From NCBI GenBank assembly GCA_965601925.1, contig OZ271854.1, forward strand, positions 4,576,001 to 4,640,000: a DNA stretch of 64,000 nt. The letters are read 5' to 3'. How positions within the stretch are numbered: the first letter of the stretch is position 1; every line of letters starts with the position of its first letter. The position numbers and the translations under genes were made by a program. Positions 8,200 through 13,479 of the stretch are shown here, one piece after another. This DNA is from Alkalispirochaeta sp. (GTDB taxonomy: Bacteria > Spirochaetota > Spirochaetia > DSM-27196 > Alkalispirochaetaceae). A model generated the notes under the pieces. That model saw only the letters and a program-made list of their open reading frames with translations, made no database searches and had not been told where the DNA came from.

Positions 8200-9729
8200 T
8201 TACCTGGCGTACTCCACGATCCGCGTCTCGCGAATCATCGTCACCTTGATCCGACCGGGATACCGCAGTTGATCTTCGATCTTGCGGGCGATCTGCTTGG
8301 CGATATCGCGCGCCTGGAGATCATTCACACGCTCATGGTTGACCATGATGCGTAACTCGCGCCCCGCCTGAATCGCGTACGCCTTGTCGACGCCGTCGAA
8401 CTCCTCGGCGATCGCCTCGAGATTCTCAAGACGCTTGATGTAATTGTCGAGCGTTTCGCGACGCGCCCCCGGTCTGGAGGCGGAAATCGCGTCGGCGACC
8501 TGCACGATTACCGACTCGATGCAATTGTGCGGTACGTCGCCGTGGTGGGCGGCGATGCAATTGACGACGCGCGGGTCTTCGCCGATGCGTTTGGCGAGTT
8601 CGACGCCGAGCTCCACGTGGTTGCTGTCGCCGTCGGTCTCGATTCCCTTGCCGATATCGTGGAGTATCCCGCCCCGCTTGGCGATCTCGACATCCGCGCC
8701 GACCTCGGCGGCGAGGGTCCCGGAGAGCACCGCGACCTCTTTACTGTGGGCCAACACGTTCTGTCCGTAGCTCGTCCGGAAGGAGAGGCGCCCCAAGCCG
8801 CGTACGCCCTCGGGTTTGAGGTGGTGCATGTTCAGCTCGTAGAGAACGCGTTCGCCCTCTTCGTAGATCGTCTGGGTCATGTCGGTGGTGACCTTCTGCA
8901 CCACCTCCTCGATGCGCGTGGGGTGAATTCGCCCATCGGAGACCAGCCGCTCGAGCGAGCGTTTGGCAATCTCCTTGCGCACCGGATCGAAGCACGATAC
9001 GACGACCGCCTCCGGTGTGTCGTCGATGATGATATCGACGCCGGTGAGCGTTTCCAGAGTACGAATGTTGCGCCCCTCGCGACCGATGATACGCCCCTTC
9101 ATCTCGTCGTTTGGCAGACTCACCGACGAGACGGTGACTTCCGCGTTGACCTCGCTGGCCAGTCGTTGCACGGTGGAGATGAGAATCTCCCGAGCGTTCT
9201 TCTCCGCGGTGACCATCGCTTCCTGCTCGATTTTATGGACGAGACCCTGCGCATCGTGGCGCGTCTCGTCCTCGAGAGAACTCATGATCAACTTTCGGGC
9301 TTCTTCTTGCGTAAGGCCGGAGATGCGCTCCATTTCATTGCGCCAATGGATCTCCAACTCATCTAACTGCTTGTTTCTATCTTCTATGTTCCTCTCACGG
9401 GTAGCCAGGCCCTGCTGCTCCTCTCCGATAGCCGCGGCCTTTTCTTCTAGGTTCTCTTCTTTCTGTAATAGCCGTCGTTCCTGACGCTGCAACTCCCGTT
9501 GCCGTTCCCGGAACTCTCGCTCTTGTTCATTTCGCTCGCGTTGAAGCGCGTCTCTTGTCTCTAGTATCAGCTCTTTCTGTCGCGCCTCGGCGTCTTTCTC
9601 CGCGTCCCTCTGTAGACGCTCGGCGAGTTGCTCCGTCGAGGAGAGCTGAAACTTGGCATACAGCCAGCGTATCGTCCAACCTAGAATGACACCAGCGAGA
9701 GGAAGGGTTCCGTACAACACCAGCTGCAT
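8200..9729 (-). CDS. rny: Ribonuclease Y
   Basis: N-terminal TM, coiled coil, KH domain (KGRIIGREGRNIR), HD domain (LHDIGK), ADAISASRPGARRE. Confidence 0.98.
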   Translation of the reverse strand: MQLVLYGTLPLAGVILGWTIRWLYAKFQLSSTEQLAERLQRDAEKDAEARQKELILETRDALQRERNEQEREFRERQRELQRQERRLLQKEENLEEKAAAIGEEQQGLATRERNIEDRNKQLDELEIHWRNEMERISGLTQEEARKLIMSSLEDETRHDAQGLVHKIEQEAMVTAEKNAREILISTVQRLASEVNAEVTVSSVSLPNDEMKGRIIGREGRNIRTLETLTGVDIIIDDTPEAVVVSCFDPVRKEIAKRSLERLVSDGRIHPTRIEEVVQKVTTDMTQTIYEEGERVLYELNMHHLKPEGVRGLGRLSFRTSYGQNVLAHSKEVAVLSGTLAAEVGADVEIAKRGGILHDIGKGIETDGDSNHVELGVELAKRIGEDPRVVNCIAAHHGDVPHNCIESVIVQVADAISASRPGARRETLDNYIKRLENLEAIAEEFDGVDKAYAIQAGRELRIMVNHERVNDLQARDIAKQIARKIEDQLRYPGRIKVTMIRETRIVEYAR

Positions 9730-9786: not shown

Positions 9787-10437
9787 TCAAGTTTCGAGCC
9801 ACTCCATCCCTTCGTCGTCCTGAATGACCCGACGGTCCCATCGCTCATCGCGGCGACGAAAACGCAGCACTCTGCGAAGCCCGCGCTCGATGAGTATGAG
9901 CATGTCCTTGGAAAGGGACTCGACGTCGGGAGCGTCCAGACGGGTGATAACCGTATCGAGGAGTGCGATGACCAACCGCGTCGCATCGTCGTACAGACCG
10001 GGTCGAAACACGCCGCGTCGCGATCCGTCGCGAATGATCTCGTCGACGATCGCCTCGATGCGCCGGCTGAGGGAGCCGATCGCGCCGCTTTGCAGATCGA
10101 ATCCGGGGTAGAGAAAGCGCTCGTCACCGGAGAGCACACCCCGGAGGATAGGATAACGCTTCATTCCGAGAACCGCGAACTGATACAGCACTTTGAGCTT
10201 GTTCATCGGCGATCGCAGCCGTTTCACCATTCGTTCGAGCTTGTGGATTCCCTCACGTTCGATCAAACTAAGAATTTGCTCGTAGAACATCTCTTTGCTG
10301 GAGAAGTGCTTGTAAAATGTGCCGACGCTTAAGCCGCATCCCCGGACGATGTCCTCGACCGATACGTCGCGGTATCCGTGGCGCGAAAAGAGCTCCATCC
10401 CCGATCGAATGATAAGAACCCGACGGTTTGCCTTCAT
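9787..10437 (-). CDS. TetR/AcrR-family transcriptional regulator
   Basis: LFSRHGYRDVSVEDIVRGCGLSVGTFYKHFSSKE HTH. TATAAT (minus strand, 10446-10451) lies 8 nt before the ATG, suggesting a leaderless or near-leaderless mRNA. Confidence 0.92.
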   Translation of the reverse strand: MKANRRVLIIRSGMELFSRHGYRDVSVEDIVRGCGLSVGTFYKHFSSKEMFYEQILSLIEREGIHKLERMVKRLRSPMNKLKVLYQFAVLGMKRYPILRGVLSGDERFLYPGFDLQSGAIGSLSRRIEAIVDEIIRDGSRRGVFRPGLYDDATRLVIALLDTVITRLDAPDVESLSKDMLILIERGLRRVLRFRRRDERWDRRVIQDDEGMEWLET

Positions 10438-10497
10438 GAAGTACCATTATATCCGTACGCCGCCTGCGGCAGAAGGACAAAGTGAAGATCGTCCTCG

Positions 10498-10518
10498 ATT
10501 ATTCACATATCGAATAAT
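10498..10518. promoter_or_regulatory. Candidate TetR operator (inverted repeat)
   Basis: ATTATTC-acatatc-GAATAAT is a perfect 7-bp inverted repeat in the AT-rich region between the divergent TetR and cysteate synthase genes. Confidence 0.4.
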
Positions 10519-10656
10519 ATTTCTTTGTCAATTTTTATCACGCCAGCATCCGTTTTTGTCTCTATTTCGCCGCATCTCCGTTACGTTCCCGTTAATCCTC
10601 ATACCGTTCATTGACCGGAGGCAGCGGCGTGGATTACGACGTATATAAGAGGACTT

Positions 10657-12012
10657 ATGGGCGACACACTCGTTACATACCGTAAGGGCACCGCTCACTA
10701 CCACCTCCGATGCTTGGCGACCGGGCAAATACTCAGAGACAACAGCCACGATTCGACGACGCGTTTTCCATTGGCGTGTTCGTCGGCGACGACTCCCGCA
10801 CTCCTGCGCACCGAGTATCGGAACACGCGCCTCGAGGTCGGCGACGAAGACGAGGGCGTTTTTCGATTTGCGTCGTGGTTACCCGTTAACACTACGTTAC
10901 CCGGTGCCGGGGGCCCGGTCACCTACCGCGCCGAGGCACTCGGTCGAGATCTCGGTCTAAGCAAGTTGTATGTGACCTTCAGCGGATGGTGGCCCGAGCG
11001 GCGCGCGCGCATCCCTACCGGCACCTTCAAAGAGAACGAGGCGTACGCGGTATACGGTCGTATGGGCGAGGCCGCATACGAACAGACGCTCGTCGTCGCC
11101 TCGGCGGGCAATACTGCGCGTGCGTTCCTGAGAGTTGCGGGAGAGAACAATTTGCCGCTGGTCGTCGTGGTCCCGGAGAATAATATCCCCGACCTGTGGA
11201 CGGTCGGAGAGCGGGGCTCGTCGACGCTCGTCGTAGCTGCCGGCGAGGACTCGGACTACGGCGATGCGATCACACTCGCGGCTCTCTTGTGCGAGGTCCC
11301 GGGATACGTTGCCGAGGGGGGTGCAAAGAACGTCGCACGTCGCGACGGAATGGGTACCACTTTTCTTTCGGCCGCGCACGCGATCGGACGCATACCGGAC
11401 CACTACTTCCAGGCCGTGGGAAGCGGAACCGGCGCGATCGCCGCGTGGGAGGCGAATCGACGTCTCATTGAGGACCGCCGGTACGGAGGTCACCACGCCA
11501 AGCTCCACCTCGCGCAGAACGCACCGTTTCAGGTGCTGGTGGACTCGTGGCGAGCGCGAAGCCGGGAGCTCCTCCTCCCCGACGAAGCGGTCACGCGTCG
11601 TCAGGTCGACGAGATCGGCGCCAAGGTGCTCGCGAACCGCCGTCCGCCGTGGTCGATGATCGGCGGTCTGTTCGATACACTCGTCGACACCGACGGCGAA
11701 ATGTACGCGGTGACCAACGACGAGGCCGAAGAGGCCGGCGATCGCTTCGAAGAGCTTGAGGGTATCGATCTCAGCCCCGCCGCGCGAGTCGCGTGCGGCG
11801 CGTTAACGCAGGCTGTACGGAAGGGAGCGGTCGGACGCGACGAGGTCATAAACCTCAACGTAACCGGCGGAGGCTTCCGAAGGGCGAAGCAAGATCTCGA
11901 CACCCGACCGCTCGAGGCGGATGTCGTGGCGCACCGTTCCGCGTTCAATACCGAGGCGATCGCCGAGATGGTGGACAGGGCTCGACGAACGCGCTTGAAT
12001 CAACGAGGATAG
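10657..12012 (+). CDS. Cysteate synthase (PLP-dependent, threonine-synthase-like)
   Basis: TGTFKENEA (PLP Lys), VASAGNTARAF, EGGAKNVARRDGMGT, YFQAVGSGTGAIAAWEA and LNVTGGG, as I recall for the cysteate synthase family. GAGGA RBS upstream. Confidence 0.88.
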   Translation: MGDTLVTYRKGTAHYHLRCLATGQILRDNSHDSTTRFPLACSSATTPALLRTEYRNTRLEVGDEDEGVFRFASWLPVNTTLPGAGGPVTYRAEALGRDLGLSKLYVTFSGWWPERRARIPTGTFKENEAYAVYGRMGEAAYEQTLVVASAGNTARAFLRVAGENNLPLVVVVPENNIPDLWTVGERGSSTLVVAAGEDSDYGDAITLAALLCEVPGYVAEGGAKNVARRDGMGTTFLSAAHAIGRIPDHYFQAVGSGTGAIAAWEANRRLIEDRRYGGHHAKLHLAQNAPFQVLVDSWRARSRELLLPDEAVTRRQVDEIGAKVLANRRPPWSMIGGLFDTLVDTDGEMYAVTNDEAEEAGDRFEELEGIDLSPAARVACGALTQAVRKGAVGRDEVINLNVTGGGFRRAKQDLDTRPLEADVVAHRSAFNTEAIAEMVDRARRTRLNQRG

Positions 12013-12150
12013 TAGTAGTAGCCATTACTCATACCATTGTCACGGCGACGATCCCGTATCGACTACCGAATACGGCGCCGGACGTCAAAAAAAAGTAGAG
12101 ACAATACCGCGACGACGCGCATACTCGTCGAATACTAAAGGAGATCTACG

Positions 12151-13479
12151 ATGCTTTTAGACCAAAAGGCGGAACGCGAAAGCGCCGCAAAGTCCGAGGG
12201 AAAGACGGACCTCTTTGCGAAATGTCATACCGATGCGGGGTACTTCGGAAAGCTCCGCGCAATGGGAGACGATGAATATACGCGCCCGGTTCTTCCGCCC
12301 AATCCCGATCGACACATGGAGTTCAAAGGTAAAGAGCACACCATGTGGTCGATCAATAACTATCTCGGCCTTGCCAACCACCCCGAAGTGATCGAGACGG
12401 CCCACGACGCTATCGACCGCTTCGGTGTGAGCTCTCCCATGGGTTCGCGTATGATGAGCGGCAACACGGAGCACCACCTCTCTTTCGAGCGCCAGCTCGC
12501 CGAGCATACGGAGAAGGAGGCGGCGTTCCTCTTCAATTACGGCTACATGGGCGTCATCGGCACCATTCAGTCCTTGGCGGGTAAGGACGATGTCATCGTC
12601 ATGGACAAGCTCGACCATTCATGCATCGTCGACGGCGCCTTTCTCGGGCAGTCGATGAACGGCGCCCAGCTGCGCGTCTTTAAGCATAACAATATGGATA
12701 ACCTCGAGCAGGTGCTCAAGCGGGTCAACCGTGACCGCAAAGGCGGTGTGTTGATCGTCACCGAGGGCGTCTACGGTATGACCGGCGACCTGGCGAAACT
12801 CGACGAAATCACCGCTTTGAAAGAGAAATACGACGCCCGACTCTTCATCGACGACGCCCACGGCTGGGGCATTATGGGTCCCGAGGGCAAGGGAACCGCG
12901 GCGCACTTCGGCGTTCAGGACAAGGTTGACGTTTACTTCGGCACCTTTGCCAAGAGCTTTGCCTCCATCGGCGGGTTCTCGTCCTCCGAGCAAGCGGTAA
13001 TCGACTGGATCGCTTACAACGCGCGCACCCAGGTCTTTGCCAAGAGCCTCCCGATGGTATACGTCGAAACGTTGCGTAAGACCTTCGATCTGGTAAAGGC
13101 GGGCGACGATCGGCGCGCCAAGATGTGGGCGCGAAGCAACGAGCTCAAAAACGGTCTGCGCGCCTTGGGCTTCTACATCGGTCCGGGCGAGTCGCCGATC
13201 TGTTCGGTGTTTCTCCCCGTGGGCGAGCACGAGCCGGAGCGTATCGCTATGCAGTCCGCCGGCTTCCTACGCCAACACGGCGTCTTCGTGACTGCGATCG
13301 TCTACCCGGTTATTCCCCTCGGGCTTATGATGTTTCGCATGATTCCTACGGCGATGCACGAGGAAGAGGATGTGCAGAAGACGTTGGCTACATTCGAACA
13401 GATGCGAAACGCCCTCAACCTCCGCCTCGATATGACCGAGGACGAAGACAAGACGATCCGCAAGGTATACGGGATATAG
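12151..13479 (+). CDS. Alpha-oxoamine synthase (class II aminotransferase fold); probable cysteate C-acyltransferase (CapB/SulA-like)
   Basis: WSINNYLGLANHPEV, GSRMMSGN, DHSCIVDG, EGVYGMTGD, DDAHG, GTFAKS (PLP Lys), YNARTQVFAKSLP. AAGGAG RBS; adjacent to the cysteate synthase. Confidence 0.8.
   Translation: MLLDQKAERESAAKSEGKTDLFAKCHTDAGYFGKLRAMGDDEYTRPVLPPNPDRHMEFKGKEHTMWSINNYLGLANHPEVIETAHDAIDRFGVSSPMGSRMMSGNTEHHLSFERQLAEHTEKEAAFLFNYGYMGVIGTIQSLAGKDDVIVMDKLDHSCIVDGAFLGQSMNGAQLRVFKHNNMDNLEQVLKRVNRDRKGGVLIVTEGVYGMTGDLAKLDEITALKEKYDARLFIDDAHGWGIMGPEGKGTAAHFGVQDKVDVYFGTFAKSFASIGGFSSSEQAVIDWIAYNARTQVFAKSLPMVYVETLRKTFDLVKAGDDRRAKMWARSNELKNGLRALGFYIGPGESPICSVFLPVGEHEPERIAMQSAGFLRQHGVFVTAIVYPVIPLGLMMFRMIPTAMHEEEDVQKTLATFEQMRNALNLRLDMTEDEDKTIRKVYGI

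Follow-up and report, generated by a model that had tools for sequence, protein, structure and literature searches.

Two neighboring genes in the genome of an Alkalispirochaeta sp. raise the question of whether a spirochaete can make sulfonolipids, which a 2023 review describes as confined to Bacteroidota. We analyzed them within a 64,000-nucleotide window (i.e., the whole stretch of DNA examined) and against the rest of the genome. An earlier note on this DNA had described a cysteate synthase followed co-directionally by an alpha-oxoamine synthase, and both open reading frames are indeed present (Table 1). In the second protein, the two blocks it quoted, WS.N.YLGLANHPEV and YN.R.Q.FAKSLPM, span residues 66-80 and 289-302. 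A sequence scan found no terminator-like site in the spacer, the two frames overlap or almost touch in several relatives, and the GC content of the pair (0.57-0.61) is the same as that of its flanks. Of the 57 genomes of the order with both genes, 52 have the synthase and the acyltransferase side by side in the same orientation, so their pairing is not due to chance.

Table 1. Features at the locus, in window coordinates except for the VOC gene, which is given in contig coordinates
Feature	Position	Strand	Remarks
rny (RNase Y)	8200-9729	-	TIGR03319, 695 bits; anchor for synteny and taxonomy, outside the pathway
TetR-family regulator, divergent	9787-10437	-	PF00440; stays with the pair in relatives
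25-bp imperfect palindrome, candidate TetR operator	10482-10506	.	TGAA-N15-TTCA core; conserved
TTGAC element, candidate -35 box	10611-10616	+	aligned in most close relatives
Cysteate synthase ORF	10657-12012	+	451 aa; RBS 10648-10653; predicted PLP lysine K125
Spacer between the two genes	12013-12150	+	138 nt; holds the RBS of the second gene
CFAT-clade alpha-oxoamine synthase ORF	12151-13479	+	442 aa; RBS 12138-12143
Codon of PLP lysine K268	12952-12954		catalytic, in the oxoamine synthase
Codon of CFAT-diagnostic K298	13042-13044		in the oxoamine synthase
Tandem VOC (glyoxalase-fold) gene	C1:4649230-4650291		~9 kb past the window end; ~60 kb from the CFAT gene

The first protein scored 467.1 bits against TIGR03844 (cut-off 324.9) and at most 59.9 bits against threonine synthase models; in the PDB it matched 9k3c, "Cysteate synthase," at 386.8 bits and threonine synthases at no more than 37.5. 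It did not match the CapA model NF053679 (cut-off 600), whose best score anywhere in the genome was 176 bits, as against 634.5 for the Capnocytophaga sputigena control. By these profile scores, it is an archaeal-type (threonine-synthase-like) cysteate synthase and not CapA, which upholds the assignment in the earlier note and narrows it to the type used by Alistipes and Odoribacter. The same family (TIGR03844) serves coenzyme M synthesis in Methanosarcinales, whereas the partner here is an acyltransferase, and a coenzyme M route was ruled out because sulfopyruvate decarboxylase (ComE) was not found over cut-off in this genome; nor was CapA.

The second protein fell below the curated cut-offs for BioF (307 versus 426 bits), KBL (299 versus 460), and ALAS (239 versus 339). 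Together with a separate true KBL elsewhere in the genome (595.6 bits, cut-off 493), these scores rule out a KBL or BioF role. Its scores against the NCBIfam SPT models (298, 284, and 231 bits) were likewise under the cut-offs of 640, 500, and 670, and its best PDB matches were 28eh (CapB/CoCFAT, 371 bits) and 7u7h (SulA, 356 bits), with the Sphingobacterium SPT 3a2b at 242.5. In a phylogeny (quick IQ-TREE, 76 rows), the enzyme grouped with the cysteate fatty-acyltransferases (CFATs) in a clade with an SH-aLRT support of 100 and a branch of 0.62, outside of which lay the SPT-like, BioF, KBL, and ALAS sequences. The earlier note had judged that it fits the Bacteroidetes clade better than BioF or KBL; the clade membership stands, but the spirochaete-dominated branch (support 97) is a sister of the Bacteroidota CFATs (97) and is not nested among them. 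A lysine, Lys281 in SulA, is reported in the excerpted text of PMC9304779 to distinguish SulA from SPT. In our alignment, this site (280 in CapB) corresponds to K298 and carries lysine in all 73 CFAT-clade rows and in none of the 25 others, with alanine in SPT. On scores, residues, and tree, the protein is a CFAT-clade oxoamine synthase. Because its branch holds no assayed member, cysteate is its presumed substrate.

Compared with known systems, the bacterial SPT (3a2b, NF047600) shares the fold, the catalytic residues, and a serine at position 99, but differs in the score to NF047600 (298 against 640), the lysine in place of alanine, and the separate clade. The pathway of Alistipes and Odoribacter (archaeal-type synthase plus SulA, 7u7h; PMC10191378 and the excerpted text of PMC9304779) employs the same two enzyme types, with the Lys281 equivalent kept; here, by contrast, the phylum is another one, the acyltransferase belongs to the sister branch, serine replaces alanine in the pocket, and the operon is TetR-flanked and accompanied by a VOC gene. 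CapB of the CapA-CapB-CapC pathway of Capnocytophaga and Ornithobacterium (28eh/28fa; PMC13692747) is the best structural relative, and there, as here, the synthase gene adjoins the acyltransferase gene; however, the Capnocytophaga CapA is cystathionine-beta-synthase-like (NF053679), a type absent here, and Capnocytophaga lacks the VOC gene.

As the earlier note had supposed, the contig is spirochaetal. The gene order GerM-tlyA-ymdB-rny-tetR-CS-AOS recurs in MAGs whose titles name Spirochaeta or Alkalispirochaeta, and rny shows 75-90% identity to its counterparts in MAG loci from Spirochaeta, Alkalispirochaeta, and Spirochaetaceae. This synteny, the even GC content, and the deep spirochaete branch rule out chimeric or recently imported DNA; neither the clade of the enzyme nor the make-up and taxonomy of the contig speaks against the earlier proposal. 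Among 401 Spirochaetota genomes, 25 contain the synthase (24 over cut-off and 1 split over two contigs) and 24 contain a CFAT-type enzyme, all of them within those 25 even where the genes are unlinked, and 376 contain neither. CysN-CS-AOS-CysH clusters occur in three genomes (G196, G241, and G276). From this distribution, the pair is a lineage-wide trait and not peculiar to one genome. There are exceptions within the order: six genomes have CFAT and VOC but no synthase and six have the synthase alone; one shows a deletion remnant. The cluster look-up named no cultured spirochaete, and no RNA data set appeared among the sequencing runs listed. The 16S genes were located in the genome.

We next consider what else the pathway would need. 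In the proposed first step, cysteate would be made from O-phosphoserine and sulfite; the genome carries CysD, CysNC, CysH, and SerC over cut-off, with a SerA-like gene adjoining serC, and a profile search of it found no siroheme sulfite reductase (PF01077). The second step would join cysteate to a fatty acyl chain. A reductase gene is not adjacent to the pair, in agreement with the earlier note; Bacteroidota likewise have redundant, unlinked reductases (PMC11211663). Our candidate is an SDR (C1:1574321-1575214) that scored 243 bits (next best, 135.5) and is the clear orthologue of the SDR beside Bacteroidota CFAT and VOC genes; among five relatives, the orthologue was present in both pathway-positive genomes and in none of the three pathway-negative ones. 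An ApbA/PanE-like gene beside CFAT in three families (f19, f32, and f50) was rejected as the reductase of this genome, where its nearest match is 24% identical and unlinked, although it may have that role in those three families. The NAD-epimerase neighbor of Bacteroidota VOC genes was also set aside (65 bits, no clear orthologue), and a search with their PlsC-like neighbor family, matched at 31 bits at best, identified no N-acyltransferase in this genome.

In 51 of 61 genomes of the order, no more than 3 kb separates the VOC gene from CFAT; in ours, the distance is 60 kb. It was found in 20 of the 401 Spirochaetota genomes, all synthase-bearing, and in 49 of 241 Bacteroidota genomes, all CFAT-bearing (37 of these 49 come from one group of 40). 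Several CFAT-bearing genomes did not yield it (two Capnocytophaga, one Mucilaginibacter, and three near-complete spirochaete genomes), and five genomes without synthase and CFAT keep a diverged copy. Cultured strains that carry the gene include Phaeodactylibacter luteus and Crocinitomix algicola. The copy in a same-genus genome (G408) is 100% identical to that of a locus labeled "Alkalispirochaeta sp." (L005), which further supports the spirochaetal origin of the contig. The protein matches PF00903 twice and comprises four beta-alpha-beta-beta-beta modules; its predicted structure (pLDDT 95) aligned with four-module proteins at Z scores of 19.5-24.3, the highest being to 4huz. PcpA (4huz), Bacillus subtilis 3oaj, maize glyoxalase I (6bnn), and GLOD4 share this fold at 18% identity or less, and the top matches, of differing function, lie within 2 Z units of one another at 12-14% identity. 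Gln11, Glu72, His259, and Glu310 are invariant in all 82 VOC sequences and fit what we take, from the glyoxalase I ligand pattern, to be the metal site. No NCBIfam model matched the protein at E 1e-15, and no characterized close relative was found; querying the PDB with this profile yielded weak matches at best (E 3e-8 or worse), and the ESM Atlas returned nothing beyond unnamed "VOC family" clusters. We also found no paper on such a protein in the sulfonolipid pathway.

The VOC protein is likely an accessory enzyme of the pathway and possibly an unrecognized step in it; we would guess that it isomerizes or epimerizes the alpha-aminoketone intermediate. Tentatively, and with slightly less than even confidence, we advance a broader reading, namely that Spirochaetota own an old sulfonolipid branch inherited across several classes, that the full module in both phyla consists of synthase, CFAT, SDR, and tandem VOC, and that the VOC protein is an undescribed isomerase or epimerase that tailors a 3-ketocapnine-type intermediate and marks a chemically distinct subclass. 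A role in sulfite supply, or in removing reactive carbonyls from aminoketones, is the main alternative for this protein, plausible although on balance doubtful: the gene heads VOC-cysH-(cysD)-cysN runs in two loci (L138 and L162), adjoins KBL in 5 of 80 loci, and has glyoxalase I and GLOD4 among its fold relatives. However, its commonest neighbor across those loci is an SDR (34/80), CFAT and an acyltransferase follow (16/80 each), SDR, CFAT, and VOC overlap in one operon (L237), and a search of 152 CFAT-lacking Bacteroidota genomes did not find it in any.

Collectively, it is very probable that the archaeal-type synthase and the CFAT-clade enzyme are the first two steps of sulfonolipid synthesis, with the VOC protein as a likely accessory. 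This reading builds on family assignments, residues, linkage, and co-occurrence, and the substrates and products it names are those that these features would predict. Because the genes are clear relatives of cysteate-making and cysteate-acylating enzymes, this spirochaete likely makes sulfonolipids. One might instead suppose that the pair, using a short acyl donor, makes a cysteate-derived aminoketone that serves as a signal, osmolyte, or secondary metabolite and not as a membrane lipid. The acyl donor is unreadable from sequence, the N-acyltransferase was not found, and the assayed CFATs lie off this branch, but we consider such a product improbable. The same branch includes a fusion of fatty acyl-AMP ligase, ACP, and AOS (L116), and in Legionella lytica the AOS gene is followed by a ligase-ComA fusion and then ComB; these neighbors suggest that the donor is a fatty acyl group and the partner a sulfonate. 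Moreover, each of the six CFATs assayed works with palmitoyl-CoA (PMC13692747), and the SDR and VOC partners occur in Bacteroidota too.

It is highly improbable that the oxoamine synthase takes serine, glycine, or alanine to give a sphingolipid-like product and adjoins the cysteate synthase for another reason, even though the pocket offers one argument for it. Using numbering anchored on the C. sputigena protein (3 differences from 28eh), to which the enzyme is 44% identical, we compared the positions that form the CapB pocket in the PLP-cysteate structure and found 16 of 19 to be identical. The three changes (A82 to S99, F113 to Y130, and M277 to V295) fall at positions that vary among Bacteroidota CFAT-type rows. 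Ala82 is part of the wall of the cysteate pocket (PMC13692747), and the four validated CFATs compared all have it, whereas SPT-like rows have serine there; this serine is also present, however, in 8 of the 20 CFAT rows from Bacteroidota, one of them a CapA-CFAT fusion (L180). Five genomes of one group (g169) keep the synthase without the acyltransferase, which suggests that cysteate has other uses. Against this stand the CFAT-type residues K298, E205, and A267, the position in the tree, the co-occurrence of synthase and CFAT even where unlinked, and two separate enzymes, i.e., an SPT-like paralogue with alanine at the diagnostic site in relatives and the KBL of this genome itself.

The sulfonolipid pair is also likely regulated by the TetR protein, whose gene adjoins CS or AOS in 29 loci, including two (L016 and L020) without rny nearby. 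The core of the candidate operator was present in 17 of the 21 upstream regions, 8 of 9 additional loci also carry it, and the palindrome is the top site genome-wide at 28.9 bits (it is itself in the training set; the next site has 20.6). A regulon spanning VOC, SDR, cysH, cysD, or serC was rejected, there being no operator match upstream of any. The sigma-70 consensus scan did not pick up the TTGAC element, and the sigma-70 and terminator scans gave counts no higher than in shuffles. Silent or decaying genes are very unlikely, for although the module is wholly lost (G401 and G402) or partly lost (G411, with a 53-aa synthase remnant) within the genus, both frames here are intact along their whole length, no catalytic residue is missing, the candidate operator is conserved, and the genome keeps VOC, SDR, and sulfite genes.

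Our literature searches turned up no report of spirochaete sulfonolipids or capnines, nor of genes for them, and in the excerpted text of a Black Sea paper the isolates with capnines are all Bacteroidota. For the pair itself, the pathway is known and the host is new. Little has been established about how this pathway continues after its first steps, and a gene that has been found only alongside it, in two phyla, offers a direct and cheap test in cultured strains. If our reading is true, capnine-type lipids from saline or anoxic habitats would not mark a single phylum, and cells whose gliding does not follow the Bacteroidota mechanism would also use them.

The two co-directional ORFs that the earlier note had read as a capnine/sulfonolipid gene pair in an apparent spirochaete lie where it had placed them, on the plus strand of the window (G000 C1:4576001-4640000), part of a single 5.05-Mb contig (genome 96.7% complete), with a gap of 138 nt between them and, on their 5' side, a divergent TetR gene followed by rny, ymdB, and tlyA. 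The first encodes a cysteate synthase, as proposed: it scored 467.1 bits against TIGR03844 (cut-off, 324.9) and 386.8 bits against PDB entry 9k3c, which is named cysteate synthase. The second product fell under every curated BioF, KBL, SPT, and ALAS cut-off, in agreement with the view that it is neither BioF nor KBL (a true KBL is encoded elsewhere in the genome), and its closest solved structures were Capnocytophaga CapB (28eh, 371 bits) and SulA (7u7h, 356 bits), with SPT at 242.5 bits.

We placed the second protein in a quick IQ-TREE phylogeny (LG+G4, SH-aLRT support only, KBL root) of 76 rows, which were left from 112 distinct sequences once 18 fragments or near-copies, the copies of the window protein itself, and a further 22 had been taken out. 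It fell inside the cysteate C-fatty-acyltransferase (CFAT) clade with a support of 100; the SPT-like rows in this tree were labelled by their best NCBIfam match, below the cut-off, and assayed SPTs lie outside its rows. Within the clade, the Bacteroidota CFATs (support, 97) are sister to a branch, also supported at 97, that unites 34 spirochaete rows with L116 and a Legionella lytica gene; one long-branch Spirosoma row that had beforehand been labelled SPT-like fell in the clade too. The Legionella lytica locus in the table may supply the sulfonate partner in a third way, via sulfolactate, in a proteobacterium. Many relatives also carry a second, SPT-like oxoamine synthase, often together with the CFAT, which is absent from the source genome (G000); these paralogues are candidates for sphingolipid synthesis in spirochaetes.

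Lys281 distinguishes SulA from SPT in the accessible part of PMC9304779, and the accessible text of a CFAT structure paper (PMC13692747) lists pocket residues. Numbered via a C. sputigena protein with 3 mismatches to 28eh over 420 positions, 16 of the 19 pocket positions in that text are identical in the window protein, K298 (equivalent to Lys280/281) among them; the substitutions are A82 to S99, F113 to Y130, and M277 to V295. The diagnostic lysine was present in 73/73 CFAT-clade rows and 0/25 other rows of a 98-row alignment. Because of the pocket residues, this lysine, and the tree, we infer that the protein would be CapB/SulA-like in its working, within the broad CFAT clade and on a branch without an assayed member. 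Ser99 is the one point that calls for real care: Ala occupies this site in the four validated CFATs compared by sequence, and SPT-like rows have Ser, which also occurs in 8 of 20 Bacteroidota CFAT-type rows, including the CapA-like-synthase fusion at locus L180.

Named genomes, when scanned, yielded 29 loci: 23 with Spirochaeta, Alkalispirochaeta, or Spirochaetales-type titles (61-83% identity) and 6 from Bacteroidota (41-43%). The order GerM-tlyA-ymdB-rny-tetR-synthase-acyltransferase is conserved in most spirochaete loci, with Rny identities of 75-90%; a gene of one locus titled 'Alkalispirochaeta sp.' (L005) is present at 100% identity in a genome of the same genus (G408), and the GC content is uniform over the pair. 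The contig is therefore spirochaetal, and the pair is inherited, not recently imported.

Among 401 Spirochaetota genomes, the synthase was over its cut-off in 24 and split across two contigs in a 25th; a CFAT-type gene (at least 48% identity) occurred in 24, every one among those 25, and 376 genomes had neither. The sole synthase genome without a CFAT (G070) is 89% complete and in 590 contigs. The two genes co-occur though unlinked in families f19, f32, and f50. Immediately 5' of the pair lies cysN in three genomes (G196, G241, and G276), and cysH is immediately 3' in G196 and G276 and divergent in G193. Within the window's order (99 genomes, many of them incomplete and the related ones not independent), 66 held the synthase at E 1e-40 or better, 63 of them over the cut-off, and 63 held the CFAT; the two genes were adjacent in 52 of the 57 genomes having both. 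The exceptions were six genomes with the synthase alone, five of them from genus g169, where it sits beside a permease and may serve another use of cysteate, and six with the CFAT and the glyoxalase-fold (VOC) gene but no synthase, one with a remnant of a recent deletion.

CysD, CysNC, CysQ, CysH, and SerC were over their cut-offs in the source genome, with a SerA-like gene (under the long-form cut-off) directly 5' of serC; neither ComE nor CapA was over cut-off there. A search of this genome for the nitrite/sulfite reductase domain (PF01077) gave no match, so that no siroheme route is known by which its sulfite would become sulfide; this would fit sulfite use in cysteate synthesis. An archaeal-type synthase is likewise used by Alistipes and Odoribacter, according to the accessible part of PMC10191378, and for that reason their sulfonolipid pathway is the closest known analogue. 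PAPS may also supply glycan sulfation, because cysQ-cysD-cysNC sit among ORFs that, judged by eye, are glycosyltransferase-like.

A profile built from 25 SDRs adjoining Bacteroidota VOC genes singled out one gene of the source genome as a candidate ketocapnine reductase (243 bits; next, 135.5). In a set of five genomes only, its orthologue occurred in the pathway-positive G403 and G420 and not in the pathway-negative G401, G402, and G210. In Bacteroidota, such reductases are redundant and their genes unlinked, as the accessible text of PMC11211663 shows. At 15 loci (L067-L085; f19, f32, f50), the CFAT has a divergent neighbour, an ApbA/PanE-like reductase, possibly as an alternative ketoreductase or through plain synteny. 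No N-acyltransferase was identified in the source genome. A palindrome upstream of the pair probably serves the divergent TetR as its operator; it is the genome's best site, being itself in the training set, and the second-best match (C1:2352015-2352039, 20.6 bits) lies upstream of a 795-aa ORF.

Clustering of neighbour proteins detected the VOC gene, which encodes ~350 aa with two PF00903 domains and lies directly 3' of the acyltransferase in relatives; a Saprospiraceae locus has the order SDR-CFAT-VOC. In the source genome it is 59.8 kb downstream of the acyltransferase. Because its convergent orientation and flanking genes are unchanged, the intervening stretch, where sampled mainly transport and catabolic genes, seems to consist of inserted catabolic genes; in G420 (L010), a smaller insert occupies this site. 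VOC lay within 3 kb of the CFAT in 51 of the 61 order genomes having both, and on a different contig in 9 of the other 10. Synthase, CFAT, and VOC were all present in 55 of the 99 order genomes; another 26 lacked all three, five of them keeping a diverged VOC (30-33% identity).

Across Spirochaetota, VOC occurred in 20/401 genomes, all within the 25 that bear the synthase. Among 241 Bacteroidota genomes, a CFAT-type gene was found in 89 and VOC in 49, all inside the 89; a single group of 40 accounts for 37 of the VOC genomes, and the other 49 CFAT genomes for the remaining 12. The neighbours at the best 80 of at least 592 confirmed VOC loci included SDR (34), CFAT-type (16), PlsC-like acyltransferase (16), KBL (5), and CysH (4) genes, and at two of these 80 VOC directly followed a CapA-CFAT fusion. 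No VOC gene turned up in C. sputigena, C. gingivalis, Mucilaginibacter angelicae, or G196, G241, and G276 (93-96% complete), so VOC is not needed for plain capnine.

The VOC structure model (pLDDT 95.3) folds into four VOC modules, and its nearest structural matches are PcpA, 3oaj, 1zsw, maize glyoxalase I, and GLOD4, with Z scores of 19.5-24.3 and identities no higher than 18%. Gln11, Glu72, His259, and Glu310 are invariant in 82/82 VOC sequences; as a residue pattern, they resemble the metal site of glyoxalase I and methylmalonyl-CoA epimerase, in which two of the four ligands are glutamates. We consider it probable that VOC serves sulfonolipid metabolism. An isomerase or epimerase acting on the aminoketone is a tentative reading of its role, less likely than not; sulfite handling and carbonyl removal are both live rivals.

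Features of the gene pair, its VOC partner, and related loci (G, genome; L, locus; f, family; g, genus; C1, contig of source genome G000)
Feature	Location	Remarks
Cysteate synthase gene	10657-12012	archaeal-type
CFAT-clade oxoamine synthase gene	12151-13479	
VOC gene	G000 C1:4649230-4650291	beyond window end
25-bp palindrome	10482-10506	core in 17/21 upstream regions and 8/9 further loci
CFAT-to-VOC stretch, about 60 kb	window 13480-64000 and G000 C1:4640001-4649229	sulfatase, oadAB, beta-galactosidase, AraC regulators, transporters, lactate-racemase-like genes
cysQ-cysD-cysNC	L101 (G000 C1:1713283-1717050)	cysH apart, L102
Fatty acyl-AMP ligase-ACP-CFAT (oxoamine synthase) fusion	L116:327-3944	spirochaete-side branch; MAG titled Bacteroidetes; VOC and SDR genes next
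CFAT-type gene, then acyl-AMP ligase-ComA fusion and ComB	L213:5992-10863	Legionella lytica plasmid NZ_CP071528.1; spirochaete-side branch
SPT-like paralogue	L203-L206, L208 (G436, G423, G426, G416, G453), L086-L089	best NF047600, 489-588 bits, cut-off 640; Ala at diagnostic site
Diverged VOC, ligand residues changed	L211:3482-4531 (G468), L232-L234	ancestral site beside rny in g168 genomes without both pathway genes; also about half of f19/f32/f50 genomes
Single-ORF fusion of CapA-like synthase with CFAT, then VOC	L185:1616-3991, L180:3-1895	Saprospiraceae
Cysteate synthase without CFAT or VOC	L209, L210 (g169)	divergent from ArsP_1 permease
53-aa C-terminal synthase remnant	L004:5777-5935 (G411)	between tetR and intact acyltransferase

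In the literature covered, which included PMC11525784, PMC12927429, PMC11334938, and PMC11129491, we found no report that spirochaetes have the sulfonolipid pathway or that a VOC protein takes part in it, with the proviso that the surveys of Liu et al. 2022 and Vences-Guzman et al. 2021 may list spirochaete homologues or the VOC neighbour. The accessible part of a Treponema denticola lipid paper (PMC11052126) ascribes sulfonates to Bacteroidota and Candida. The observation is confirmed, and its interpretation as a capnine/sulfonolipid pair is supported and, on these sequence comparisons, likely right. The pathway itself is a known one; here it falls on a separate branch, none of whose members has been assayed, in a phylum where no report was found. 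Of the new leads, the VOC partner lends itself best to testing.
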